From the IMG/VR virus record IMGVR_UViG_3300023276_000007, positions 32,001 to 96,000 of that record: a DNA stretch of 64,000 bases, one strand, 5' to 3'. The notes beneath the pieces were generated by a model. That model was not told the DNA's origin, made no database searches, and worked only from the letters and a program-made list of their open reading frames with translations. The stretch is from a virus. The translations under genes and the position numbers were made by a program. Below are positions 9,477 to 47,325 of the stretch, piece after piece (position 1 is the stretch's first letter; each line of letters starts with the position of its first letter).

Positions 9477-12400
9477 GTGACTTATGTAAAGCCACAAGTT
9501 AAAGTATTTCAAGAGTTTCAAGCCGCTCCGGAAGCTGTCGTTCAGAACCTGAACGCGTTCGTATTCGGACCGCACTATCAACTCTTTAGATACGCAGAAT
9601 CCTCTGAGAAAGCTTTAGTTAGCTTAGGGGATTATGATAAAGATAACGACACAGATTACTTGTGGCCTAATCAGCCGGCATTGTCTGTCGTTGACCAATC
9701 TTTCACCAAACTTTACGCAGACGATGCGCTTTTAAAGTATATCAGCTTTGCTGAGTCAGCGGTTAACCCGTTGGTTCTTACAAGTGCTAGTGTACGGAAT
9801 AAGCTTAGAGCTGCTCCAAGAATAGGTGCTACTACCTCTGCGGGTAACATTGACGTCACAGTCAGTGGTGTTCACAATGGTGGCGCAAATCTTCCGGAGA
9901 GCTATTACGTCTATCCTGCAGAAAGTTTCATTATCGGCTCAGCAGCCGGTGAATTAAATTATATTACGACTGACGGACTTAAAGGATCTATTGCAGTTCC
10001 TGCAGATGCTACGTTAGCTAACAAGGTTGTAGAAGGCCCGGACGGAGTCGCTTTAGACTTTGACCTTACTGGATTGGCAGTTAACGCTCCAAGACAGATT
10101 GTCGTGGCAGGTGCTTCATCAAGCTTCACACTTACACAGTTGAAGAGCAGAATACCTTCACACATTGCAGATGCAGAAGCAGCCGACGCTCTTAGAGTAA
10201 CGGTAGCAGATGCAGCACTCTCGGTTACATATAACCCAGGAACAAGCAATGAACTCTCTGTCAGCTTCGACATTGGCGGCGGTGGTGACTCAGTCGCTGC
10301 GGCTAGAGCTGCTGTTGTTGCAGTTACAGACATTCTCGAAGATTGGGAAGTAAGTGATATCTCTGGCGACGGACTCGATGCAGTTACTACTGTAGAAGAC
10401 CAAGACGCTGCAGACCTTGTTGCTGCCACTACTAACATCTTAGATGATTATGCGTTCTACACAGTATTCGCTAACTCAATTATCTTTAAGACTGAGAATG
10501 GGTTCAACCGTTCAGCTGGTCTTTTCAAAGACGTCGAAGTCGGTGACAGAATACGTCACGTCGTAACTCCAGTCAGCACAGGTGTCCCTGAAGAAGTCTT
10601 CAGCACAGTTGTTGGTTTCGAGCCAGACATCCTTAACGCTACAGTTTCTGACCAAACACCTGCCGACGACAACGCAGAGAACCAACTAAGCACAGATTTA
10701 AGTGCTGGTGATTCTTCCGTCCTAGCTGGTGGTGGTGATAATCAGAACACTGGACTTCTTGTAGGCGGTAACGCAGCAATCTATCTTCTCGATCAGACTG
10801 CTACTTACGATGACGCTTTCGGAGATCAATCACAAGGTGTAAGCGATCTAGACATCACAGTTACGATCGTAGCAGGCGGAGTTGCCACTAGTGGTAATGT
10901 CACTGCTAACGTCTCTAATGCTTCAGGAACGTACAACCGTACAGGTGTTCCAATAGTTGCAGATGCTAACTACCCTGATGGTAGTATCTATATCGGTAGC
11001 AACATGGTTCTCGCCTTTGACGCTACAGGTGATACTTCTGGATCAGGCGGTGGACCTGACAGAGAATTCAAAGCTGGTGACAGTTATGAAGTATCTGGAG
11101 TCCTTACCCCAGTTAACGCTGTTAACAATCTTATTGTCGAGGGTTCTTACTCTGGTCAGCAAGATACTACTTACAGACTAGAAGTTGTTCGTGGCGGACT
11201 TTTCGATAGAACAGTTGTTGCTCAGCCAGGTGTTAACTACTTCGGTAGAGGCCATAACGCTGTCTACGCTAATACAGTTATTACTTCTGCAGGTCAGCCT
11301 GCTGATACAGAAACCCTCACATTAAATGATGGGTTTAACAGTGTTGTCTTCGAGTTCGATAACAATGCTACTGTTTCTGGTACTAACGTTGCTGTAGTTA
11401 TCGGTGGAACTGCCGCAGACACACTAACTAACTTACTAGCAGCTATCCAAGGAAGTTCTCTTGATGCTCAGGCAATCGAGACTGTCTCTGGTACTGAGAT
11501 CACAGTTACGTCTAACAACCTAGCTAACGACCTCACTTCTGCAGGAACACCAACTAACTACTCTACAGTAGATACCGCACTATCAACTCCGACAGCCTCT
11601 ACGGTTATCGCAGCAGTAGTCGACATCTCTCAGTGGACTGGTGGTGATCTTGATGACGAGTATCGTCTAGTTGTTACTAAAGCAGGTGGTAACCTTGTTT
11701 CGACTGAGTTCGCTCTTGAGTCTAACGCTGGTGATAACCAGAACGGTATTTCCTTCCCAGCCTTCGCTACATCTGTAGACGTCGGTATCAAAGGACTTGC
11801 AATCACTCTTACTGATGGTGGCGCTGTTAACCCAGCCTTCGCTGTAGGTGAGACTTTCGTTCTAGACTTGAGACTCTCAAGACCTAAGCTTAAGATTACA
11901 GACTCTGCAGGTATCGATCAGCAGACTAACGTTGTAGTTGCAGATGGTGACATCATTAACGTCGGACTTAACGGCGTAACTGTTGAATTCCCTTCTAACA
12001 CCAACTCTAACGGTGGAATCGACATTAACGGCGGACTAAGCTTAGGCGACGTCTGGACTATTGAAGCTACTGCAAAAGCAAACGGACCTCTTAAGACTCT
12101 TGTTCTTAGTGAGCCTGTTTCTGATAACGTCGCAGCTGCAATCGACTCAGCAGGAGTTCCGGTACCAATACCTGACCTTTTCGCTATCGACCTGTTCTTG
12201 TTTAGCAACTCAGTCACTATCCCAAGTGAGCAGCGTGATCCTAACGTAGCCGCTGGTTTCTTTAACTGGCAAGGTATTGCAGCAAGCTTGACATCTAACT
12301 CTGGAATAACACTCCAGGATAGCAGATGGGTAGACCCAAGTGACAGTTCTATGCCTTACCTTGAATTATGGCAAGGTTCACTTTATGTAGAGTACAGAGC

Positions 12401-13715
12401 ATTACTCAGAGAGTATACTAGCTCAATCTTCTCTATATCTAACATTGACGATGTGGTCAGTTCACTCGGTCCAATTGTTCCAGACAACCCACTAGCTCTA
12501 GGTGTTTACAAAGCACTACAGAACAGTGCAGATGCTACCGTGTATTTCATGGGAGTTGAATCTGATGATGTTGCTGGATACTCTAAGGTCCTAAGTAAAG
12601 CTACTCTTTCTGATAAGCTTTACAGTCTCGTACCTCTTACGTTCGACGATACAATCCACGGATTGGTTGATGCGCATGTTGACGAGATGTCCACAGAAAA
12701 TCGTAAGAGATGGAGAATAGCATTCCTCGCAGCTGAGACCAGCTTCGAAAACGCAATCCTTTGGGGTGGTAACCATCCTACTAATGGAGTGTGGAACGCT
12801 ACTATCACTGACGATACACGAGCTGTCGGTACTCAATACACAAGAGTTGAGTTCACAGAGTTCGCAAACCTACTAGGTACTGTTGCAGTTGGCGATGAAA
12901 TTCGTTTCAACTTCGATATCGATGCTTGGGGTAACGAGACTCACACGTCAGCTGTCGTAGCAGAATTGGAAAGTAATCAGGTTCTTTACCTCGATGCCGC
13001 CCAGCCAGCCGCGATCACAACTGCAGTGAAGATGGAAATTTACCATCCTCTAAGCACAAGTGAGCAGGCTTCTAAACTTGCAGAAACTTCCGCAGCTTAC
13101 GCCGACAGAAGAATGTATGCAGTTTACCCAGACGTACTGTTTAACGAAGGCGTTGCAGAACCAGGATACTTCGCAGCAGCGGGTGTAGCCGGGTTAGCAA
13201 GCTCAGTAGTTCCTCAGCAAGGGTTAACAAACACTGAAGTAGCAGGGTTCGATGACGTTCCAGCTATCTACAGCATCTTTAGTGAAGATGACCTTAACAC
13301 TATGGCCGAGGGTGGTACATTGATCGTAGCTCAAGAGCTACCAGGTGGTCCGGTATTTATCCGTCACCAGATCTCTACCAACCAACGTAGCGGTGTTCTT
13401 GCTAAGACTGAATTGTCAATGGTTAAAAACTTTGACTCCATCAGTTACTACTTCGCTAACAAACTGTCCCCTTACATTGGTAAGTATAACGTAACTCCAG
13501 CACTTGTTGACCACCTCCGCACAGAGATTCTGTCTGGTATCAACTTCTTGAGTTCATTTACAGGTGTAGGTCTTCTTAGCCCGCAGGTCATTAAGGAAAA
13601 CAGTGAGATAGTTCTCATTCAGCAGCACCCAACGCTCGCTGATACGATTATCGCCAATGTGAACCTGAACTTACCAGCGCCGCTTAACGTAATCGAACTA
13701 CACTTAGTAGTATAA
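9477..13715 (+). CDS. Contractile tail sheath protein with large inserted domains
   Basis: N-terminal YVKPQVKVFQEF..FVFGP; C-terminal sheath core (AAGVAG..PQQGLTN, GGTLIV, IRHQIST, PAPLNVIELHLVV); GTG start with SD AAGGAG. Confidence 0.85.
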   Translation: MTYVKPQVKVFQEFQAAPEAVVQNLNAFVFGPHYQLFRYAESSEKALVSLGDYDKDNDTDYLWPNQPALSVVDQSFTKLYADDALLKYISFAESAVNPLVLTSASVRNKLRAAPRIGATTSAGNIDVTVSGVHNGGANLPESYYVYPAESFIIGSAAGELNYITTDGLKGSIAVPADATLANKVVEGPDGVALDFDLTGLAVNAPRQIVVAGASSSFTLTQLKSRIPSHIADAEAADALRVTVADAALSVTYNPGTSNELSVSFDIGGGGDSVAAARAAVVAVTDILEDWEVSDISGDGLDAVTTVEDQDAADLVAATTNILDDYAFYTVFANSIIFKTENGFNRSAGLFKDVEVGDRIRHVVTPVSTGVPEEVFSTVVGFEPDILNATVSDQTPADDNAENQLSTDLSAGDSSVLAGGGDNQNTGLLVGGNAAIYLLDQTATYDDAFGDQSQGVSDLDITVTIVAGGVATSGNVTANVSNASGTYNRTGVPIVADANYPDGSIYIGSNMVLAFDATGDTSGSGGGPDREFKAGDSYEVSGVLTPVNAVNNLIVEGSYSGQQDTTYRLEVVRGGLFDRTVVAQPGVNYFGRGHNAVYANTVITSAGQPADTETLTLNDGFNSVVFEFDNNATVSGTNVAVVIGGTAADTLTNLLAAIQGSSLDAQAIETVSGTEITVTSNNLANDLTSAGTPTNYSTVDTALSTPTASTVIAAVVDISQWTGGDLDDEYRLVVTKAGGNLVSTEFALESNAGDNQNGISFPAFATSVDVGIKGLAITLTDGGAVNPAFAVGETFVLDLRLSRPKLKITDSAGIDQQTNVVVADGDIINVGLNGVTVEFPSNTNSNGGIDINGGLSLGDVWTIEATAKANGPLKTLVLSEPVSDNVAAAIDSAGVPVPIPDLFAIDLFLFSNSVTIPSEQRDPNVAAGFFNWQGIAASLTSNSGITLQDSRWVDPSDSSMPYLELWQGSLYVEYRALLREYTSSIFSISNIDDVVSSLGPIVPDNPLALGVYKALQNSADATVYFMGVESDDVAGYSKVLSKATLSDKLYSLVPLTFDDTIHGLVDAHVDEMSTENRKRWRIAFLAAETSFENAILWGGNHPTNGVWNATITDDTRAVGTQYTRVEFTEFANLLGTVAVGDEIRFNFDIDAWGNETHTSAVVAELESNQVLYLDAAQPAAITTAVKMEIYHPLSTSEQASKLAETSAAYADRRMYAVYPDVLFNEGVAEPGYFAAAGVAGLASSVVPQQGLTNTEVAGFDDVPAIYSIFSEDDLNTMAEGGTLIVAQELPGGPVFIRHQISTNQRSGVLAKTELSMVKNFDSISYYFANKLSPYIGKYNVTPALVDHLRTEILSGINFLSSFTGVGLLSPQVIKENSEIVLIQQHPTLADTIIANVNLNLPAPLNVIELHLVV

Positions 13716-38477: not shown

Positions 38478-39017
38478 ATGGGAAAACCGATGTATCAGCT
38501 TGATGAAGACATTAGAAGGGTAGACCACAATAAGTGGCCAAAGCGCTTGGTGTGCGGAAATTACCTATCTTTAAAAAAGATGACCTTCCAAACTAGAGTA
38601 GTTGGATATAGGGCGGAGATTATTAGAGAGTCTGATGGTCAATGCCTAGCTAAACTATATAAGAATGGAAAGATTACAGTTTTCCCTGGATACTACTGGG
38701 ACGGGCCTAGTGGGCCTACTGTGGACACCGTGGCTTTTGTTATTGCTTCACTACCTCACGACATATTTTATCAAATGCTGCGAGAAGACTTACTTATAGA
38801 CGTAAGTAACTATGTAGCATTCCCAGAACCTTATTATGAAGAGTTTGAAAAAGTTAGAAGGTGGGCAGATGATACTATGCGTGAAGTTAACATAAAGAAT
38901 GGTATGACTAAGTTTAGGGCGTATTATACATATAAATTTGTACGCTGGTATGGCGAAGAAAGTGCCTTATCACGGTATGTTAAAGACTACAATGAATATT
39001 GGATGAATCACGGTTAA
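38478..39017 (+). CDS. DUF1353-like protein
   Basis: VFPGYYWDGPSGP...ASLPHDIFYQ...ADD..R...Y.FVR..G. Confidence 0.65.
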   Translation: MGKPMYQLDEDIRRVDHNKWPKRLVCGNYLSLKKMTFQTRVVGYRAEIIRESDGQCLAKLYKNGKITVFPGYYWDGPSGPTVDTVAFVIASLPHDIFYQMLREDLLIDVSNYVAFPEPYYEEFEKVRRWADDTMREVNIKNGMTKFRAYYTYKFVRWYGEESALSRYVKDYNEYWMNHG

Positions 39018-39027
39018 CGGATAAATT

Positions 39028-41190
39028 ATGGCACGACAACCTTTTGAGTATGGCCCCGATTGTGATGGCCCTGATGTAGATATTAACATAATACCTACAT
39101 CTTTCCCATTGTGTGATGAAGTCGTCTTTGAAGATCCTGACTTACTACCCACCTGCACCGACTTTGAGACTGTAGATTTTATAGTTCCCCCAGTCTGCCC
39201 ATGTTTCCCTGAACGTATGGGTCTTACTGATAACTCGAATGCAAGTATTGCTTGTGGCGGGCCTCTACCTTCAATAACCTTTGATGCAGCTATCGTTAAC
39301 GTAGCACCGGACGACTGCTGTGCTCCAGAGTTTAAGCTTGATATACAGTTAGATATACAAGTACCTTGTGTAGGTGCTGTCGGAGGCTGTGCCGCTATAG
39401 TTGGTCAAGTTGACATCAAAATTGATGAAGGTCCGCTTGGATGGTTCTTTGATTGGGAAAAATGTATCGATGACCAAGGTAACATTATAAACGACCCCTG
39501 CTGTATTCGGCTAGTGGGTGAGATGTTTATACCTTGTATAGACGGTATAACATTTAAAGTTGAACATAATATCCAAGAGACCGGTGCAGTAGATATCCCT
39601 ACCATCGAGGAGTTTACTATAGAAGCGTCTGATGACGTTCCATGTGAATACGATGTAGTATTCGACATGCTAGTTCCTTTACCAGAGGACCCTACAATAC
39701 CTATAAGCCCTACAGACCCAAATATACCACCCGGCCAGAACTGCTGTAATGGTGTAGGTTATTGTCCCGACGAAGGTACGTTTAGCGACCTAGGAAAAAT
39801 GAAAACAGAGACTATTTCGGTCGTCACCAATATTACCTGTGATCTGGAAGGTAATTTAACTGTGGAGAGGACAGAACTTGAGTATGTTTGCGGGCTCCTT
39901 AAAGATTTCAGGATAGCTGGGAACGACGCGATTCCCTGCGCTGGGGCTCAGTCGTACAATGAGGATTGCTGTCCAAGCACTACGACGACAGATCCGGACT
40001 ACCCACCACCAACTACAGAGCCAGGTGAGGGCCCCTATGGCCCGTATATCCCGCCAGAAACCTGTCAGTGTCGGTGTGACAAATATTACGTGTGTGACAA
40101 AGAGACAGGGAAGACAATCCCAGACCTCTATGTTGAGGTTTACGACCTGTCCGGCGATGGTAGCTGTGCTTACCGTATTGTAGATGGTGACAGTGTAGAC
40201 GAGAATAACAACGCGGTAATTATGCACGAAGGCCTAGGATGTCCAGACCCTGACGAAAATATATCTAACGGTTCTACTACGTGGGTTCTAGCGTGTGAAC
40301 CCTGTAGTGATTGGCCGGATAACAGTACCACGACAACTACTACTACCACGACAACTACTACTACACCGCCTATCATCATCGATGAGAAGTACTATTGCGT
40401 ACAGATCGGTACCGGTGCTCCGAAGCAATGCGTTATCGGTGCAGCACTAGTTCCAGGATCACCAATCTCAGCAGGACCTTTCGATAGTGCGTCTGAATGT
40501 GCAGCAAACTGTAATACAAACAGCTACGAGTATGAAGAGTGCCCTGCCTCGACAACAACCACAACCACGACGACGACAACCACAACCACGACAACCACGA
40601 CAACCGCGACAACCGCACCTCCTATGGCGGCGGCTTGTGGTACTGACAATGGTCACCCAACTATGCTAGTCACTATGACTTGGACAGGTGGCCCAGCTAC
40701 TCGTGATTACATGGGATGTAATGACTGGGAGTCAGGCCAGCAGCGCGTCTTAAATGCCGATACCTATGACCGGTACCAGAACACCATGGGTGGTTGCCTA
40801 GGTGAAGAAGGTGAATATTGGAGAAAGGGTGCAGACAGTGACGCATTTAACATGTCAGGTTTCGTAGATTTCTTCGGAGGATTTTTCTGGCAACTTAAGA
40901 ATGAATATAACGGCGTTGGAGAATTGAACCATGGTACAGCAGCTATTGATGGTTACGTTTATGATAGCCTCTCTGCGTTCTCACCAGGGCCAGGCGCGTT
41001 TTACCCTTTCGGTAACTCATTCCTAGACGGCCCTTTTGGTGGAAATACCGCCTTCCCTCCGCCGTCCACAGGCATGAGCGGGTGTTTAACCGGGGCATAC
41101 CTCGGAGATCTTAAATCTGCACAGCTCAGCGGTAGCGTGACGTTCGCTAACGGTGTTACGGTGACGTGGGAACAAGGAACAGGATGGTAA
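39028..41190 (+). CDS. Cys-rich virion protein with poly-Thr tracts and variable C-terminal domain
   Basis: Dense Cys; T13 and T18 tracts; C-terminal HPTMLVTMTWTGG...SGSVTFANGVTVTW. Confidence 0.6.
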   Translation: MARQPFEYGPDCDGPDVDINIIPTSFPLCDEVVFEDPDLLPTCTDFETVDFIVPPVCPCFPERMGLTDNSNASIACGGPLPSITFDAAIVNVAPDDCCAPEFKLDIQLDIQVPCVGAVGGCAAIVGQVDIKIDEGPLGWFFDWEKCIDDQGNIINDPCCIRLVGEMFIPCIDGITFKVEHNIQETGAVDIPTIEEFTIEASDDVPCEYDVVFDMLVPLPEDPTIPISPTDPNIPPGQNCCNGVGYCPDEGTFSDLGKMKTETISVVTNITCDLEGNLTVERTELEYVCGLLKDFRIAGNDAIPCAGAQSYNEDCCPSTTTTDPDYPPPTTEPGEGPYGPYIPPETCQCRCDKYYVCDKETGKTIPDLYVEVYDLSGDGSCAYRIVDGDSVDENNNAVIMHEGLGCPDPDENISNGSTTWVLACEPCSDWPDNSTTTTTTTTTTTTTPPIIIDEKYYCVQIGTGAPKQCVIGAALVPGSPISAGPFDSASECAANCNTNSYEYEECPASTTTTTTTTTTTTTTTTTTATTAPPMAAACGTDNGHPTMLVTMTWTGGPATRDYMGCNDWESGQQRVLNADTYDRYQNTMGGCLGEEGEYWRKGADSDAFNMSGFVDFFGGFFWQLKNEYNGVGELNHGTAAIDGYVYDSLSAFSPGPGAFYPFGNSFLDGPFGGNTAFPPPSTGMSGCLTGAYLGDLKSAQLSGSVTFANGVTVTWEQGTGW

Positions 41191-41194
41191 ACTT

Positions 41195-42211
41195 ATGAGT
41201 AGCTTATTTTTTAAAGACGACCACGGTCAATTTATCAAACACGGCAACAAATGCTACACGAAGGTAGGTGCCTCTCAGGTTATGCCCGACGTTACAACAG
41301 CCCCGGATGGTGGGTCTTCTTTTGTTGATTGCGATGATTGCAACTCTGGTACTACGACCACTACTACGACCACTACTACGACAGCCTTATCCGGGTTATC
41401 ATTTGGGCAAACCAACACTCCTGCAGAAGGCGACCCAGAAAGTACAGTAGTTGGCGACTTAACACCTACCGGCGGTACAGGCCCGTTCACGTATGCAATG
41501 AAAGCAGGGGCAGGTGATGGTGACAACGGTAGTTATAAGATTGTAGGATCACAGTTACAGTTAAGCGCGGCACCTAGTATCTCGGAACCGACCGACAGTA
41601 TACGAGTAGAAGTTACCGATAGCCTAATGGCCACCTTTGACGACACCTTCTCAGTTGATGTATACCCAACAACAGGATCTATGACCGTTGAACTAGCAGA
41701 AGGTTCACCGCTATACGACGACGCCTCTCCTGGTGAGGACGTAGGTGAAGTATCTGCAGGAACTAACTTAGGCGACATAAACGCTGCCAATGGTAATCCA
41801 TCCACACGACTAGTTTACGTATCAGGACCGGAAGTCTCCTTCTTAGGTAAGGACTGGAGTCCTAACGATTACGGCGAGCTCTATACAGACGCAGTTCCGT
41901 ATTCAGTGCCAGACCAGCACGAGTGGGGTAGTGATACACCTGCCAACCCTGGTTTGTATATGCACGACTATCACGAAATGCCTTATGTAGGTGATTATGT
42001 GTCTCGGGTATCTTTCCGTATAGATGCAAGTAACCAATTAGACATTACTAACCAGACAACAGGTGGTACTATTGATAATAGCGTCGGCGTGACCTCTGGT
42101 AACGATCCAAACTTATTAGTACCAGATGGAACCATCGACACAGCCGCTTTTCAGGAAGTGACTTTTGCTAACGGACAAACCTGGAAGTGGCAACAGGAAT
42201 CTGGATGGTAA
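41195..42211 (+). CDS. Poly-Thr + cadherin-like domain virion protein
   Basis: T11; cadherin-like VVGDL..FTY..GAGDGDN..IRVEVTD; half-domain; C-terminal VTFANGQTWKW. Confidence 0.65.
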   Translation: MSSLFFKDDHGQFIKHGNKCYTKVGASQVMPDVTTAPDGGSSFVDCDDCNSGTTTTTTTTTTTALSGLSFGQTNTPAEGDPESTVVGDLTPTGGTGPFTYAMKAGAGDGDNGSYKIVGSQLQLSAAPSISEPTDSIRVEVTDSLMATFDDTFSVDVYPTTGSMTVELAEGSPLYDDASPGEDVGEVSAGTNLGDINAANGNPSTRLVYVSGPEVSFLGKDWSPNDYGELYTDAVPYSVPDQHEWGSDTPANPGLYMHDYHEMPYVGDYVSRVSFRIDASNQLDITNQTTGGTIDNSVGVTSGNDPNLLVPDGTIDTAAFQEVTFANGQTWKWQQESGW

Positions 42212-42253
42212 GTATGTATAACTTAAAAACAATAAAACTATAGAGGAATTAAC

Positions 42254-42841
42254 ATGGCCATTACATATACAATAGAAGCAGACCCTACCGCAGGCGGAAA
42301 CGATGCGAATAACGCAGACTTTGACATAGAGAATCCAGACGTACTGGAGCTGTCCTCTAATGCACCTTTAGCAGGCGGTAGTTATAAAGTTACAGTAAAA
42401 GCTGTTGATGGCGTATCTGGTGAGTTTGGCTATGGCTTCTTTACGGTAGTAATCAACCCTAGAATCACAGCCCTAACACTGAATCAGACTAACGTACCTA
42501 TCGTTGGCGATTCTGCAGGTACTCTTGTTGGTGACCTTCAAGTTACTGGCGGTACTGCTCCGTTCACGTTTGCTTTAGTAGCAGGTGCAGGAGATGGAGA
42601 TAACGGTAACTATCAAGTAAACGTTGCTGATATTGAAGTAAAGGCTGCGGCTGTCTTGACAGACCCAACTGACGCAATAAGAGTAGAAGTTACTGATGCG
42701 GCGGGTGACACGTTTGAGCAAGCACTCACAGTCAACGTACAACCAGTAACAGGAACTCTGACAGTTATATTGACTCTAGGATCTCCACTATTCGACGACG
42801 ACAGTCCTACAACAGACGTCGGTACAGTAAGCGCGTCTTAA
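42254..42841 (+). CDS. Cadherin-like protein (half + full + half domain)
   Basis: SD GAGG; FALVAGAGDGDN..IRVEVTD..FEQALTV; N-terminus nearly identical to next ORF. Confidence 0.7.
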   Translation: MAITYTIEADPTAGGNDANNADFDIENPDVLELSSNAPLAGGSYKVTVKAVDGVSGEFGYGFFTVVINPRITALTLNQTNVPIVGDSAGTLVGDLQVTGGTAPFTFALVAGAGDGDNGNYQVNVADIEVKAAAVLTDPTDAIRVEVTDAAGDTFEQALTVNVQPVTGTLTVILTLGSPLFDDDSPTTDVGTVSAS

Positions 42842-42866
42842 CCTAGCGCAGACAAAGGAAGCGTAA

Positions 42867-44711
42867 ATGGCTATAACATATACAATAGCAGCAGATCCAA
42901 CGGCGTCGGGAAACGACGCCAATAACTTGGACTTTGAAATAGAGAACCCAGACGTACTGGAGTTATCTGCTAACGCCCCTTTGACTGCCGCCACCTATAA
43001 GGTAACGGTAAAAGCCGTTGATGGTGTATCTGGTGAATTTGGCTACGGCTTCTTTGACGTAGTAATCAACGCGGCTGTCACAGCGCTATCCCTTAATCAA
43101 ACAAACACCCCTCAGGCGGGTGACCCAGTAGACACTTTAGTAGGTGACCTCCAAGTTACAGGGGGAACTGCTCCTTACACGTTTGCTTTAGTAGCAGGTG
43201 CTGGTGATGGTGACAACACACATTACCAAGTTGATGGTTCTAATATAGAGTTAAGTGCCTCTGGCGGCACAACAGCCGGAACTGATGCAATAAGAGTAGA
43301 AGTTACCGACGATAAAGGCTATACGTTTGAACAATCTTTAACTGTTAATATAGCCGTTGCTCCGACCACGACCACTACGGCCGCCGCTACTACGGCACCT
43401 CCAGGACCACTAGCCTGTGGAACCCCTAATAGCGACCCTACTATGATCGTTACTATGTCCTGGACGGATGTTGATGTAACCAAGAGTTACCTAGGGTGTA
43501 CCTGGACTAATGGGGAAACTAAAGAATTATATACCACCTTCTATCAGGCAGTGGTTGGATCGCTGGAAACGTGGCGTAGAGATGCAGGACCAGACCCACA
43601 ACTGTTTCATTTACACGGTAATGAATATTATCCGGGGACAGCCCCCTCCCTCTACGAAACCATATTGGGAGGAGCTAGTATCGGCGTAGTATATCATACT
43701 AATTATAGACTTCAGATCTTTAAGGATTCAACTTTTACAGGATCCTCTGGCAATGTAGGAGTAAGTGCGTCCTCCCCGACAGCGGGTGCTCTAGTTACGG
43801 GTGCCCCTATAGCCCCAAGTCATAAAAGTGGTTCGGTCACTTTCACGAATGGCATCACCGTAAGTTGGGGGGAAGGTAACTTATGGCCACCACCGATTAC
43901 GGATATAACCCTTAACCAGACTAATACACCGACAGAGGGTGACCCAGTAGCTACTTTGATTGGTGACTTAACACCGACAGGTGGTACTGCATCATTTACG
44001 TATGCACTGGTAGCTGGTACCGGAGACACTGATAACTCTCATTACCAAATAACCGGCGCTAACCTAGAGTTAAGTGCCTCTGGTGGCTCAACATCCTTAA
44101 CAGACTCAGTACGTATAGAAGTGACTGATGCGACTGGACGTAAATTCGAGAAGGCCTTTACTGTGACAGTCGACCCCGTACCTATGGCAAGCCCTTGTTT
44201 ACCAGACCTCGGACATCCGTCTATGCTAGTAACACTGTCCTGGACAGGAGGACCAGCCACTAGGACATTCTTAGGGTGTACTGATTGGGCACCAGGACAA
44301 CAGCGCGTAGTGAACGCAACTGGCTATAACTTAACTTACACGCCGACCACCGCAGTATCTGGCGTTAATTCTGCTGGATGGAATGCTGCCGGCGGTGGCG
44401 ACGGCGACCTTATTAGATTCGGAGGGACTACCCTTCTAAGCTCATTCTCTAGTAGACAAGCTGGTAGCGTACGGTTTAACGGTATAGAGGGTGTCATCGG
44501 TGCCCCTGCCGACCCAACCTTCTCAATCTTTCGAGTTGACTTTAAATCCTTTACTGGCTACAACGGGAGCTTCAACAACTTAGTTACGGCAGGGTTCAGT
44601 CCTACTAAAACTAATGTCGGCGTAGGGGTACCTCTAGACGCCAGTAGAAAGAGCGGCTCAGTTACCGATGTAAACGGTATTACGTATAGCTGGCAACCTA
44701 ACGGCTGGTAG
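42867..44711 (+). CDS. Cadherin-like adhesin with Thr-rich linker and two variable domains
   Basis: Two full cadherin-like domains, PTTTTTAAATTAPP linker, two P(T/S)M.VT.SWT domains. Confidence 0.7.
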   Translation: MAITYTIAADPTASGNDANNLDFEIENPDVLELSANAPLTAATYKVTVKAVDGVSGEFGYGFFDVVINAAVTALSLNQTNTPQAGDPVDTLVGDLQVTGGTAPYTFALVAGAGDGDNTHYQVDGSNIELSASGGTTAGTDAIRVEVTDDKGYTFEQSLTVNIAVAPTTTTTAAATTAPPGPLACGTPNSDPTMIVTMSWTDVDVTKSYLGCTWTNGETKELYTTFYQAVVGSLETWRRDAGPDPQLFHLHGNEYYPGTAPSLYETILGGASIGVVYHTNYRLQIFKDSTFTGSSGNVGVSASSPTAGALVTGAPIAPSHKSGSVTFTNGITVSWGEGNLWPPPITDITLNQTNTPTEGDPVATLIGDLTPTGGTASFTYALVAGTGDTDNSHYQITGANLELSASGGSTSLTDSVRIEVTDATGRKFEKAFTVTVDPVPMASPCLPDLGHPSMLVTLSWTGGPATRTFLGCTDWAPGQQRVVNATGYNLTYTPTTAVSGVNSAGWNAAGGGDGDLIRFGGTTLLSSFSSRQAGSVRFNGIEGVIGAPADPTFSIFRVDFKSFTGYNGSFNNLVTAGFSPTKTNVGVGVPLDASRKSGSVTDVNGITYSWQPNGW

Positions 44712-44713
44712 TT

Positions 44714-45211
44714 ATGGATAATCACGGAGTGACGATACATCTCTACGGGTACCCATGCTCCGGTAAAACTACGATAGGTGGTTCGTTAGCTAAAGCATTA
44801 GGTAGAACTATAATCCTAGATGGCGACTATGTAAGAAAACATATAAGCAAAGACTTAGGATTTTCTAAGAAGGACCGTATAGAGAACGCCCGCAGAATAG
44901 GTAGCTATACCTCCCTATTAAACGACCAAGGGTTTAATGCGGTAGTATGTACAGTAGCTCCTCATAAGAAGTGTCGAAGACTAATACGCGACCACGTCAA
45001 GTACTACACCTCTGTGTTTATAGACACACCTTTAAAGGATTGTATAATGCGTGACACTAAAGGTATGTACAAGAAGGCTGTGTCCGGAGAGATACAAAAT
45101 TTTACAGGAGTACATTCTTTTATAGATAGAGGTACACCCGACATCGTAGTAACACCTGGGCCAGTACATCTTCAAGTCCAGTACATAATTTCACAATTGG
45201 CTGGAAATTAA
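44714..45211 (+). CDS. cysC: Adenylyl-sulfate (APS) kinase
   Basis: P-loop GYPCSGKTT; LDGDYVRK..SKDLGFSKKDRIENARRIG; RDTKGMYKKA..GEIQNFTG. Confidence 0.93.
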   Translation: MDNHGVTIHLYGYPCSGKTTIGGSLAKALGRTIILDGDYVRKHISKDLGFSKKDRIENARRIGSYTSLLNDQGFNAVVCTVAPHKKCRRLIRDHVKYYTSVFIDTPLKDCIMRDTKGMYKKAVSGEIQNFTGVHSFIDRGTPDIVVTPGPVHLQVQYIISQLAGN

Positions 45212-45265
45212 GTACTAACTGTTTATACTAACTACACTAATACGAAAACAAAAAAGGTACTAACT

Positions 45266-46390
45266 ATGTTGAATATCGTAAGCGGTTGTCCTCGCTCTGG
45301 GACTAGTCTATTAATGAACGTCATGCTCTCCATCTTTGGTGAAAAAAACATTATGGGTGGTGGCAAGCCCAACCTTGACTTTGACTACGACGCTGAGCTT
45401 GCTAAGCTAAGCAACAGAGAACAGGCTATGGTTTGGTCTCAAGAGAGAGCCTTAGCTGCAAAAGGCCAGACGAGAGAAAAGAGGTTGGAGATACAAGCGA
45501 AAACTATGGATCTTAACCCCAACGGGTTCTTCGAGTGTCAGTACAGCGTTCAAGGTATTTCCTATAACTACCCAGACCGCGAGCAACTTAAAAAGTATGT
45601 TAGCGACGGCGGGGATAAACTATGCATGAAAATAGTCTCCAGTGGTCTGCGGGTTAGTGACCCAAGGTTTATTGGGAAGGTAGTCTACCTTATAAGACAT
45701 CCTAGGTCTGTAGCTAAAAGCCAAGAAAGGCTACGTACGCAGCTTGATATGCTTTTTGAATCAAACCCTGGTTATGAGGATATGAAGCAAAAGATGGTTA
45801 TACATTCCCCGCGTATGTATATCAACTCTACAAGAGCAGCTTCCGAGTTTTTCCTAGAGAATCCAGACATACCTGTTCATCCATTACACTACGACGAGCT
45901 CATTGCTACTCCTGAGAAAGTTATTAAAGACTTAGCGGGATTCTTGGGTAAGAACAAAAAAACCGTATGGTCTAAGGCTAAAGGTATCGTAGATCCTAAG
46001 TTAAAGAGAAGTTACCCTGAAGATATCGAAAGTGACCTATGGGAAGACGCAGAAGAGGTTTACCGACTTTTTGATAAGCAAGACTACCAAGGCGTTGTCG
46101 ACTACCTCAAGCCTATGCACAGAAACACTAATCAAGCAAACTCTAATTGGGTATGTGCACGTAACGGTATTCTGACTAACAAGGCACAGTGTACAAACTG
46201 CATCAATAATGAAACCGTAAGAACCAACTTTAAAAAAGCAGCTAACGAGAAGAAGATTGATTGGCGTAATGAGCCTTGCCTCTTTGAGTGCGGTATGAAC
46301 CTCTCCTTAGAAGACGATAAGGTACTTACCTTAGAAGAAAGCACCAAGAATAACTTCTGGAGAGCAGGTGCTGAAAGGCTGGTTAAATGA
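45266..46390 (+). CDS. PAPS-dependent sulfotransferase with Cys-rich C-terminus
   Basis: 5'-PSB motif SGCPRSGTSLLM; 3'-PB motif LIRHPRSVAKS; YDELIATP...L..FLG. Confidence 0.85.
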   Translation: MLNIVSGCPRSGTSLLMNVMLSIFGEKNIMGGGKPNLDFDYDAELAKLSNREQAMVWSQERALAAKGQTREKRLEIQAKTMDLNPNGFFECQYSVQGISYNYPDREQLKKYVSDGGDKLCMKIVSSGLRVSDPRFIGKVVYLIRHPRSVAKSQERLRTQLDMLFESNPGYEDMKQKMVIHSPRMYINSTRAASEFFLENPDIPVHPLHYDELIATPEKVIKDLAGFLGKNKKTVWSKAKGIVDPKLKRSYPEDIESDLWEDAEEVYRLFDKQDYQGVVDYLKPMHRNTNQANSNWVCARNGILTNKAQCTNCINNETVRTNFKKAANEKKIDWRNEPCLFECGMNLSLEDDKVLTLEESTKNNFWRAGAERLVK

Positions 46391-47325
46391 ACAAACTAAC
46401 CTGTATTCTAACCTTCTTAAATGAAGGTATAGAAGTCTTTAGGACGGTTAAAAGCATACGGGACAGTGTAGGGGATACTGTAGATATCTTATTGGTAGAC
46501 GACTCCAGTACAGATGGGGTGCCCTATAAAGTTGTTGCCAACAAATTTAACTGTGACTATGTGAAGTCGGATACTCGACAAGGAGTGGCTGGCGCGAGAG
46601 ATCTTGGAGTGTCTTTAGCTAAGACGCCATACTGTATACTCTTCGATGCCCACATGAGGTTCGACAAAAGAAGTAATTGGGCAGAACGAGTTGTAGAAGA
46701 AATAGAAAATAACGACAGGCGTATTTACTGCACAACTTGTGTATCCTTGTGGTATCCGTTTATAGAGCAGTCCCAAAGTGTTACCCACCAAAGAAGCACA
46801 GGAGCTTACCTAGCGACATCTTTCAAGGATAGCCACACTAGCCTTGCGGCTAAGTGGATACCGCTCAAACTAACAGGCGTAGAACCAGTTCCTTTAGTTC
46901 TTGGGGCGACCTATGCCTTCTCTGTAGAGTACTACCGTGAGTTGCGAGGTTTAGCCGGCTTGAAGTATTATGGCAGTGACGAACCTTGGATATCCCTAAA
47001 GTCTTGGGCGATAGGTGATGGCTGCGCAGTTATAACAGATGTTAACATAGGCCACCTATTCCGATCCAAGCACCCGTATCCAGCGTATGGACTAGACGCC
47101 CTCTATAATAAACTTTTTATGGCGGCTGTAGTTTTTCCTAAGAAGACTAAGTGGTTAGAGGACCTAATGAGGTTGGGCGGCCCAAAGGTAAGTAAGATGT
47201 TTAAAGAAAATGAAACTCAGTTTAGGGAAACAAGGTCTTGGTTTGCAGAAGTGGAGAAGCCCGGCTGGCGGGAGACATTCTCTCAATTGAATGGAGAATT
47301 TACTGAACAGGTAATTACGTTATGA
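46387..47325 (+). CDS. GT-A glycosyltransferase resembling polypeptide GalNAc-transferase (GT27/GT2-like)
   Basis: FLNE, RTVKSI, ILLVDDSS, GVAGAR, FDAH, YGSDE, GHLFR..HPY. Confidence 0.85.
   Translation: MNKLTCILTFLNEGIEVFRTVKSIRDSVGDTVDILLVDDSSTDGVPYKVVANKFNCDYVKSDTRQGVAGARDLGVSLAKTPYCILFDAHMRFDKRSNWAERVVEEIENNDRRIYCTTCVSLWYPFIEQSQSVTHQRSTGAYLATSFKDSHTSLAAKWIPLKLTGVEPVPLVLGATYAFSVEYYRELRGLAGLKYYGSDEPWISLKSWAIGDGCAVITDVNIGHLFRSKHPYPAYGLDALYNKLFMAAVVFPKKTKWLEDLMRLGGPKVSKMFKENETQFRETRSWFAEVEKPGWRETFSQLNGEFTEQVITL

Follow-up and report, generated by a model that had tools for sequence, protein, structure and literature searches.

The window, i.e. the whole stretch of 64,000 nt analysed here, belongs to a large uncultured tailed phage which is represented by a 106.7-kb contig from which about 43% of the genome is missing. 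Three consecutive genes on the plus strand of this window encode proteins that contain complete as well as incomplete cadherin-like domains. The incomplete pieces are referred to as half1 (the plug) and half2 (the socket), and a further kind of domain as GW. In detail, the following features can be found:

Three adjacent genes with cadherin-like domains

41195–42211, plus strand: ORF 41195, 338 aa, beginning with an N-terminal region
41351–41383, plus strand: Thr11 tract of ORF 41195
41384–41668, plus strand: complete cadherin-like domain of ORF 41195
41669–41761, plus strand: half1 (plug), first copy, residues 159–189 of ORF 41195; candidate A-B hairpin
41762–42208, plus strand: C-terminal GW domain of ORF 41195
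42212–42253, plus strand: AT-rich spacer of 42 nt with the Shine-Dalgarno sequence GAGGA
42254–42841, plus strand: ORF 42254, 195 aa
42254–42457, plus strand: half2 (socket, strands C-G) of ORF 42254
42458–42745, plus strand: complete domain of ORF 42254
42746–42838, plus strand: half1 (plug) of ORF 42254
42842–42866, plus strand: intergenic gap of 25 nt
42867–44711, plus strand: ORF 42867, 614 aa
42867–43070, plus strand: half2 (socket) of ORF 42867
43071–43358, plus strand: complete domain of ORF 42867, followed by a Thr-rich linker and a GW domain
about 43890–44177, plus strand: second complete domain of ORF 42867, followed by a second GW domain

The chain encoded by ORF 41195 has no half2 and that encoded by ORF 42867 has no half1. 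Exactly two half1 and two half2 copies are present in the whole contig, the gene order being plug, socket plus plug, and socket. Residues 1–162 of 42254 and 42867 are 75% identical, and residues 71–194 of 42254 share 53% identity with residues 65–188 of 41195. At the DNA level, the similarity between the paralogues 42254 and 42867 starts at the ATG and is absent upstream of it.

The coordinates, sequences and gene boundaries given in an earlier, sequence-only reading of this DNA were borne out on re-reading, as were its statements that both genes starting with a half domain possess their own Shine-Dalgarno sequence and that the 25-nt gap is out of frame. In detail, GAGGA (42243–42247) precedes the ATG at 42254, and an in-frame TAA (42233–42235) lies six codons 5' of this ATG with no other start in between. 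The frame of ORF 42254 is an open stretch of 201 codons which ends with TAA at 42839–42841. The gap (42842–42866) contains AGGA at 42856–42859, and the following ATG at 42867 is out of frame with ORF 42254 (613 mod 3 = 1) and immediately preceded by a TAA (42864–42866) in the frame of ORF 42867. Because this TAA directly precedes the ATG, the two ORFs cannot be fused by a frameshift. Inspection of the sequence revealed neither a slippery run nor matched take-off and landing codons in frame at the junction, and a fusion product made by programmed frameshift, bypass or readthrough is ruled out by the TAA ending the 42254 frame together with the TAA before ATG 42867. A sequencing error, which the earlier reading had named as a possible cause of the split, is largely refuted as well; no frameshift or readthrough path joins the two frames.

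None of the Pfam cadherin families matched any of the three ORFs at E <= 1, a match at the gathering score being absent, and no significant family was obtained from Pfam or PHROGs for the four fibre-like ORFs. Since no family from these collections matches, it is only from the position of the genes, which follow a gene for a tail-fibre chaperone within a block of myovirus structural genes, that we infer the proteins to be virion fibres. A representative protein library contained 1483 matches. The proteins are homologous to PF00028-carrying proteins: P0009, which carries PF00028, was matched at E 3.3e-21, and P0010 was matched at 3.2e-8. In addition, a domain profile made from bacterial sequences only matches the complete domains at 1e-9 to 7e-16 (Z = 1e6). 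The calcium-binding linker motifs (xEx, DxD, DxNDN or NVNEAP) are absent when the phage domains are compared by eye with the bacterial consensus; in the same comparison they show TGGT for TDPD and VNVQPVTG for NVNEAPT, and they have no FDFE. A profile search against PDB sequences gave nothing for the short form represented by ORF 42254 and E 2.8 only for the GW domain, for which the ESM Atlas held no usable match either.

The AF2 monomer model of 42254 (pLDDT 92.2) matches cadherin EC domains at Z 9–10 from strand C onward. Its complete domain (residues 68–166) has the cadherin EC fold, a beta-sandwich of about 95–100 aa, and can be superimposed on EC domains with Z 9.1–10.2 and an rmsd of 2.4–3.1 Å over 91–98 residues. 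The best Foldseek matches to the model are all cadherins; P-cadherin and E-cadherin EC1-2 entries are among the structure matches, and several chains align residues 1–195 of the model to three consecutive EC domains (e.g. 6bx7, 186 residues). The alignment behind this model consisted of 5 sequences and 73 in-register slices of bacterial arrays, and with the 5 sequences alone the pLDDT was 39. In the model, half1 appears to extend past the complete domain and not to fold back, an "open" arrangement which was read from aligned ranges only and towards which, as towards the half1 hairpin, the contiguous slices of bacterial tandem arrays bias the model.

The two halves of the divided domain and their conservation

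Half2 consists of strands C-G of a cadherin-like beta-sandwich that is truncated at its N-terminus. Aligned with hhalign to a profile of 90 bacterial cadherin-like domains (P = 5.6e-6), its residues 3–56 correspond to profile positions 37–85, and in the relatives HMMER aligned residue 3 to profile position 36; half2 is an incomplete Ig-like sandwich which covers profile positions 36/37–91 only. In a VIA-align comparison, residue 1 of the 42254 model was aligned to residue 32 of E-cadherin, and giant bacterial cadherin-repeat proteins can be aligned contiguously to residues 12–195 of 42254. The socket always constitutes the first 68 residues of its protein. It starts with M-A-x-x-[YF] throughout the homologues of either protein type, the start being fixed by upstream stops. 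No other part of the protein is conserved as well: the socket has 85% identity between 42254 and 42867 (counted by hand from the alignment) and is under strong purifying selection, with a dN/dS of 0.09 at a dS of 1.04 between these paralogues compared to 0.16 for the complete domain. Given a dS of about 1 with this dN/dS, the duplication of the socket is old and constrained. Its high conservation between the paralogues fits what would be expected of a shared docking module.

Half1 plausibly represents strands A-B of such a domain. This stretch of about 30 aa immediately follows the complete domain in 41195 and 42254. It starts at the position expected for the A strand of the next domain, matches A-B in length and stops at the B-C loop position, where half2 sets in. 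Residues 13–194 of 42254 were aligned to positions 10–195 of a two-repeat bacterial profile, which places half1 in A-B register. To the match with the tandem profile half1 adds 4.3 bits in 42254 and 3.5 bits in 41195, values that are reached by 2 and 11 of 200 shuffles, respectively. Half1 of P0002, P0004 and P0005 added no score against the bacterial tandem profile, and against the phage's own complete domains half1 did not score above shuffles. The division into halves proposed by the sequence-only reading is thus robust for the second half in 42254 and 42867, while the first half in 41195 and 42254 is plausible but statistically weak.

A half1 HMM run over the 106.7-kb contig found two matches only, at E 2.7e-17 (41195) and 3e-17 (42254), the next hit having 0.74. 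Each copy belongs to a gene that is directly followed by a socket-first gene, and nine half1 positions are invariant among homologues of 47–96% identity. For the compatibility of half1 and half2, a direct-coupling analysis was based on 1,784 bacterial domains and yielded couplings which resemble contacts. The analysis was set aside as lacking power: its held-out AUC was only 0.71, it did not separate the complete domains of this phage from random pairings, and half1 was not placed in the alignment by hmmalign. A putative compensatory pair of plug V189 and socket Y44 (Y and K in the relatives) was dropped, as its columns rank 2002nd in this analysis.

Homologues of ORF 42254 are P0001, P0002, P0004, P0005, P0165 and P0167. 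Short forms of 195–221 aa with the same start and end show 96, 62, 57 and 47% identity to 42254; independent sources yielded the same 195-aa product, which is also encoded on a contig of 90,631 nt with 96% identity, and the forms of 200–221 aa have 47–62% identity. The homologue P0161 of ORF 41195 also has 338 aa and lies on a contig equal in size to that of P0001 and P0008, the latter (622 aa) being a homologue of ORF 42867 with the same layout. The three-gene set is repeated in the 96% relative, and the short form is paired with a socket-first tip protein in three to four further lineages; in all these cases co-occurrence and gene adjacency were read from equal-sized contigs. A plug-only partner was not identified in the more distant lineages. 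The socket-first tip proteins 42867, P0008, P0166, P0168 and P0068 have the same 68-residue N-terminus, an orphan socket, followed by differing C-terminal domains.

Searches of INPHARED phages by DNA and by protein, and of JGI metagenome contigs with the 42254 alignment and P0005, gave no useful relative. In IMG/VR the sole match to 42254, its alignment, P0005, P0002 and the chaperone was L005, a distant cadherin-like sequence. A protein search for relatives of 41195 returned only its own cluster of at least 90%; this is not evidence of absence, because known relatives in which an EC domain is followed by half1 escaped the same search. The earlier reading had also considered that relatives might carry these ORFs in fused form. 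No fusion was found among the relatives examined, whose short forms keep the same ends down to 47% identity, and judged by these comparisons the split is neither an error nor a recent pseudogene.

How the divided domain might be completed

An Ig or cadherin sandwich without strands A and B would have an exposed core, which is the reason why the socket would need a partner, and half1 is the only candidate for it in the contig. Since the chain of 41195 carries a plug but lacks a socket, and that of 42867 the reverse, any completion of either must take place in trans. As the best explanation, we suggest that one cadherin-like beta-sandwich is cut at the B-C loop with its two pieces on different proteins, and that the plug of one protein would complete the socket of the next, giving a non-covalent joint. 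ORF 41195 would provide the N-terminal part and a plug, with its GW domain as a side branch; 42254, with socket and plug, would act as an adaptor or extender; and 42867 would follow with its socket and two GW tip domains. The product would be a beads-on-a-string virion fibre which is possibly branched, direct joints between 41195 and 42867 being equally possible. We regard the chances that trans-complementation of the split domain forms a fibre joint, with binding between plug and socket, as evenly balanced.

A less probable explanation, which nevertheless deserves serious consideration, is that the halves do not pair, half2 docking on or being completed by another virion component and half1 being a conserved linker or hairpin. 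This would agree with the marginal or absent likeness of half1 to strands A-B and with its position in 41195, where it occupies the place of the Thr-rich linker in 42867. In addition, half1 of the relatives contains two Cys and a Thr-rich tail, and may because of this be an autonomous stapled hairpin. Among paralogous phage fibres, conserved N-termini usually point to a docking site in common, whatever its nature. However, start, length and end of half1 fit A-B up to the very loop where half2 begins, plugs and sockets occur in a ratio of 2:2 in adjacent genes with the order expected for pairing, and no further half1-like piece exists in the 106.7 kb, a contig lacking about 43% of the genome.

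If the halves do pair, it has been proposed by the sequence-only reading that 42254 forms a head-to-tail homopolymer, with 41195 as anchor, (42254)n as shaft and 42867 as tip, resulting in a filament of adjustable length. Such a homopolymer is speculation and rather improbable. In its favour, no protein other than 42254 combines socket and plug. The sockets of 42254 and 42867 share 85% identity and the plugs of 42254 and 41195 are homologous, so self-association is not obviously forbidden if pairing occurs, and at least four lineages have kept the short form. The same data are, however, accounted for by a 1:1:1 chain or by direct 41195-42867 joints, and a virion part of defined size would not usually be left to polymerise without control. 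Equally doubtful is the broader picture in which the phage would use two-strand donor complementation to build a branched receptor-binding fibre that can be extended, with 42254-type subunits setting the length and interchangeable socket-first tips sharing the joint, i.e. a modular docking standard with tips swappable by recombination.

Closure in cis, by which half1 of 42254 would fold onto its own half2, so that the monomer would be compact, with two domains, and amount to a circular permutation, is very unlikely. Both halves are present in the 42254 chain, and the geometry would be conceivable with the two sandwiches side by side and antiparallel. However, the chain has only very short linkers (by DSSP, half2 and the complete domain are about 3 residues apart), the AF2 model seems extended, albeit biased by its alignment, and the orphan plug of 41195 as well as the orphan sockets of the five tip proteins would be left unexplained.

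Finally, the view that the split stems from an error in sequencing or assembly, from a recent mutation producing a pseudogene or from recoding into one long protein is largely refuted and hardly tenable: 10 of 154 cadherin-repeat proteins examined do start inside a domain, and partial domains are common in fragmentary metagenome gene calls, but the short products recur at 96% (195 aa) and 47–62% identity (200–221 aa), the two socket copies have diverged to a dS of about 1 under constraint, the frames of 42254 and 42867 differ with an in-frame TAA before the latter's ATG, and no fusion would restore a contiguous domain at the start of 42254, because a complete GW domain and the 42-nt spacer, not half1, precede it.

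Comparison with known systems

If the pairing of plug and socket is true, the locus would provide a naturally split beta-sandwich that serves as a protein-protein joint in a virus, with a two-strand hairpin as donor and a cadherin-like fold. It would explain how tip proteins with a common 68-residue N-terminus (42867, P0008, P0166, P0168 and P0068) are attached to the virion, and would offer a split-domain connector that is small and can be genetically encoded. Should the two halves not pair, the finding reduces to an oddly truncated yet conserved N-terminal docking domain.

In classical cadherins, the N-terminal A strand of EC1 can be exchanged between two chains in strand-swap dimers. The fold is the same; whereas that swap is reversible and involves two complete domains, in the phage the cut at the B-C loop is a permanent one, the halves of the domain being encoded by different genes. 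Homologous repeats are also found in bacterial tandem cadherin-repeat adhesins (P0009, P0011, P0012, L006-L026), with which 42254 is contiguous over two repeat lengths. These adhesins contain 10–50 whole repeats per chain, in register with domain boundaries, whereas in the phage proteins the cut is displaced from this register by about 30 residues. Compared by eye with the consensus, the phage domains are without the NVNEAP, TDPD and FDFE motifs. Cadherin- or Ig-like domains are already known from phage decoration or fibre proteins, such as the BFVD matches from Caulobacter phage CcrBL9, Rhizobium phages RHph_N34 and RL38J1 and Cyanophage SS120-1; a split across genes is reported for none of them. 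No phage precedent for donor-strand complementation was found in the literature searched.

A close parallel to the proposed assembly is offered by fibres that form by donor-strand complementation or exchange, i.e. chaperone-usher pili and the TasA biofilm fibres of Bacillus subtilis (PMC9674648). As in these, an incomplete Ig-like sandwich would be completed by strands of its neighbour, resulting in a non-covalent head-to-tail chain in which initiator, adaptor and tip subunits may be distinct. In contrast to them, the phage plug would contribute two strands (an A-B hairpin) and not one, the fold is cadherin-like and its complementation is a proposal here, and the setting is a structural module of a phage with no chaperone or usher, in which donor and acceptor occur both on separate proteins and together on a single one.

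Gene boundaries and genomic setting

The window covers bases 32001-96000 of its source contig (106,765 bases, IMG/VR virus), which has an estimated completeness of 57%; all large ORFs of the window lie on the + strand. The phage is a large myovirus, since residues 1192-1342 of a 1412-aa ORF (9477-13715) match tail sheath (phrog_279) and ORF 38478-39017 gives a match to a tail-fibre assembly chaperone. The sheath-matching ORF is far longer than usual sheath proteins, and most of its length has no assignment. Four ORFs lie 3' of the chaperone gene, and all four were searched without a Pfam or PHROG family match:

ORF 39028, + strand, 720 aa
ORF 41195, + strand, 338 aa
ORF 42254, + strand, 195 aa
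ORF 42867, + strand, 614 aa

Downstream of them (44714-47325) follow APS-kinase-like, sulfotransferase-like and then glycosyltransferase (GalNAc-transferase-like) genes. No near relative of this phage was found in the phage, IMG/VR and metagenome collections searched; public data contain the phage of the window itself in a longer assembly (121,091 nt; P0163, P0159, P0007).

The sequence-only reading held that a cadherin-like domain is split across these genes, and the sequences it quoted are indeed found in the window. As it stated, ATG 42867 sits 25 nt past the 42254 stop (TAA, 42839-42841) in another frame, and both genes have their own SD (AGGA 7 nt before ATG 42867, GAGGA before ATG 42254). 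A TAA at 42864-42866 is in frame with ATG 42867, and another lies in frame six codons 5' of ATG 42254 with no alternative start codon between, so that both N-termini are fixed by sequence. Fusion of 42254 and 42867 by frameshift, bypass or readthrough is ruled out by these stops and frames.

Residues 1-162 of 42254 and 42867 are 75% identical, residues 71-194 of 42254 and 65-188 of 41195 are 53% identical, and the DNA similarity of 42254 and 42867 starts exactly at the ATG and ends where the complete domain ends. Identical terminator-like hairpins on the minus strand (42334-42348, 42947-42961) were rejected as being two copies of the conserved coding stretch NPDVLEL in the N-terminal piece; their count is not above the shuffled expectation.

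A truncated cadherin-like domain at the N-terminus

An exhaustive HMMER search returned 1483 relatives of 42254. The best matches are giant bacterial proteins that carry 10-50 repeats in tandem and align to it contiguously (e.g. query 12-195, 14-194 and 4-191); Pfam PF00028 was present in one relative, P0009. From a sample of bacterial arrays (21 loci, 193 domains located), a profile was built with 90 complete domains. It matches the complete domains of the phage over positions 3-96 and the N-terminal piece of the relatives from position 36, the F of the FTYSL strand, and in a profile-profile comparison residues 3-56 of this piece matched bacterial positions 37-85 (P = 5.6e-6).

With an alignment enlarged by 73 in-register bacterial slices, the AF2 model of 42254 reached a pLDDT of 92.2 and a pTM of 0.72 (pLDDT 39 with the five-sequence alignment). 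Five strands fall in residues 1-67 of the model, seven in residues 71-161 and two in residues 171-194. By Foldseek and VIA-align the model matched cadherin extracellular (EC) domain tandems only, the complete domain giving Z values of about 9-10 (rmsd 2.4-3.1 A). The first residue of the model is aligned with residue 32 of E- or P-cadherin EC1, which is strand C. As the sequence-only reading had proposed, the N-terminal piece of 42254 and 42867 is thus a truncated cadherin-like domain; it begins at strand C. We refer to it as the socket.

Conservation of the split and the candidate first half

Sequencing error or recent pseudogenisation would also leave such half domains; against this, short forms recur, dN/dS is low and the duplication is old. 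P0001 (195 aa, several sources) is 96% identical to 42254, and it, the 41195-like P0161 (338 aa) and the 42867-like P0008 (622 aa) are each recorded on a 90,631-nt contig. Five further short forms (P0002, P0165, P0004, P0005, P0167; 200-221 aa, 47-62% identity) keep the start M-A-F-T-[YF] and end just past the first half, or plug, a candidate A-B hairpin of about 30 aa, here with two Cys and then a short Thr-Pro tail. For each short form, a socket-first tip protein (socket, complete domain, GW domain) is recorded on a contig of equal length:

P0002 and P0166, 8,937 nt
P0004 and P0003, 4,270 nt
P0005 and P0168, 65,577 nt

P0068 (326 aa, same layout) is found on a 257,096-nt contig, so the socket-first family reaches jumbo-sized phages. 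The two sockets of the window differ with a dS of 1.04 and a dN/dS of 0.09 (0.16 for the complete domain); they go back to an old duplication, and no other part is as constrained as the socket. By six-frame HMM search the whole contig contains exactly two plugs (41195, 42254) and two sockets (42254, 42867), the next best matches having E > 0.2. The gene order is plug, socket plus plug, socket; a socket is lacking in 41195 and a plug in 42867. The split is real and maintained.

The C-terminal piece is a plausible, weakly supported candidate for the missing A-B part. Of the claim that it is a first half, register and length stand, fitting strands A-B, while the gain in score is small and is zero in three relatives. 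Joined on paper, plug and socket align end to end with complete domains, only the B-C loop being absent. A bacterial two-repeat profile covers 42254 residues 13-194 without a break (positions 10-195) and 41195 residues 72-188 (positions 76-195), the plug adding 4.3 bits in 42254 (reached by 2 of 200 shuffles), 3.5 bits in 41195 (11 of 200) and nothing in P0002, P0004 and P0005. Alone, it matches the profile of bacterial domains with P = 0.044, and the register is as expected; against the phage's own complete domains its score is not above shuffles. The hairpin that the AF2 model shows here does not count as independent evidence, since A-B strands stood in these columns of the supplied alignment. 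Nine positions of the plug are invariant among five homologues. In P0002, P0004, P0005, P0165 and P0167 one Cys falls in each predicted strand (VAC...DYC) and a disulfide between the two could hold the hairpin together; both plugs of the window lack Cys.

A possible joint between fibre-like proteins

When strands A and B are missing, half of one sheet of a cadherin or Ig sandwich is lost, and its core would be exposed. As the five-strand remnant is conserved and under selection, the socket most likely binds something that supplies these strands. The plug is the sole candidate donor in the available sequence: its length fits, and it runs from the point where a next domain would start to the point where the socket begins. 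We infer a plug-and-socket joint in which 41195 would bear the plug, 42867-type tips the socket, and 42254, with both, would act as adaptor or extender. Closure of 42254 in cis, its own plug filling its own socket, seems unlikely, since its linkers are short and model residues 1-195 align to three consecutive EC domains (6bx7, 186 residues; 5dzw, 182). These aligned ranges, read without coordinates from a model biased by its alignment, suggest an extended form. A coupling analysis based on 1,784 bacterial domains was underpowered out of sample (AUC 0.71) for judging plug-socket compatibility.

The B-C loop lies, by fold topology, at the domain end nearest the preceding domain, so that after a break there the GW domain of 41195, or the Thr-rich tail of the relatives, could leave the joint sideways. 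The GW domain (about 150-190 aa) occurs in four copies:

40627-41187, + strand
41759-42208, + strand
43383-43892, + strand
44175-44708, + strand

It ends in VTFxNGxTxxWxxGxGW; both ends are conserved, often with a pair of Cys close to the start, and the core is divergent. It recurs in P0006, P0166, P0168 and P0068, had no match in Pfam, PHROG, PDB sequences or Atlas, and is presumably the binding tip. Poly-Thr tracts separate domains of the fibre-like proteins (41351-41383, 43359-43406, further tracts in 39028-41190). BLASTP of the 41195 N-terminus (41195-41365) against ORF 39028 (39028-41190) gave a best E of 0.9.

In the full-text literature, covered incompletely, no phage turned up whose fibre is held together by complementing a split Ig- or cadherin-like domain. 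Classical cadherins swap strands, and cadherin-like domains are already known on phage proteins. Pili and TasA are known cases of donor-strand complementation (PMC9674648).
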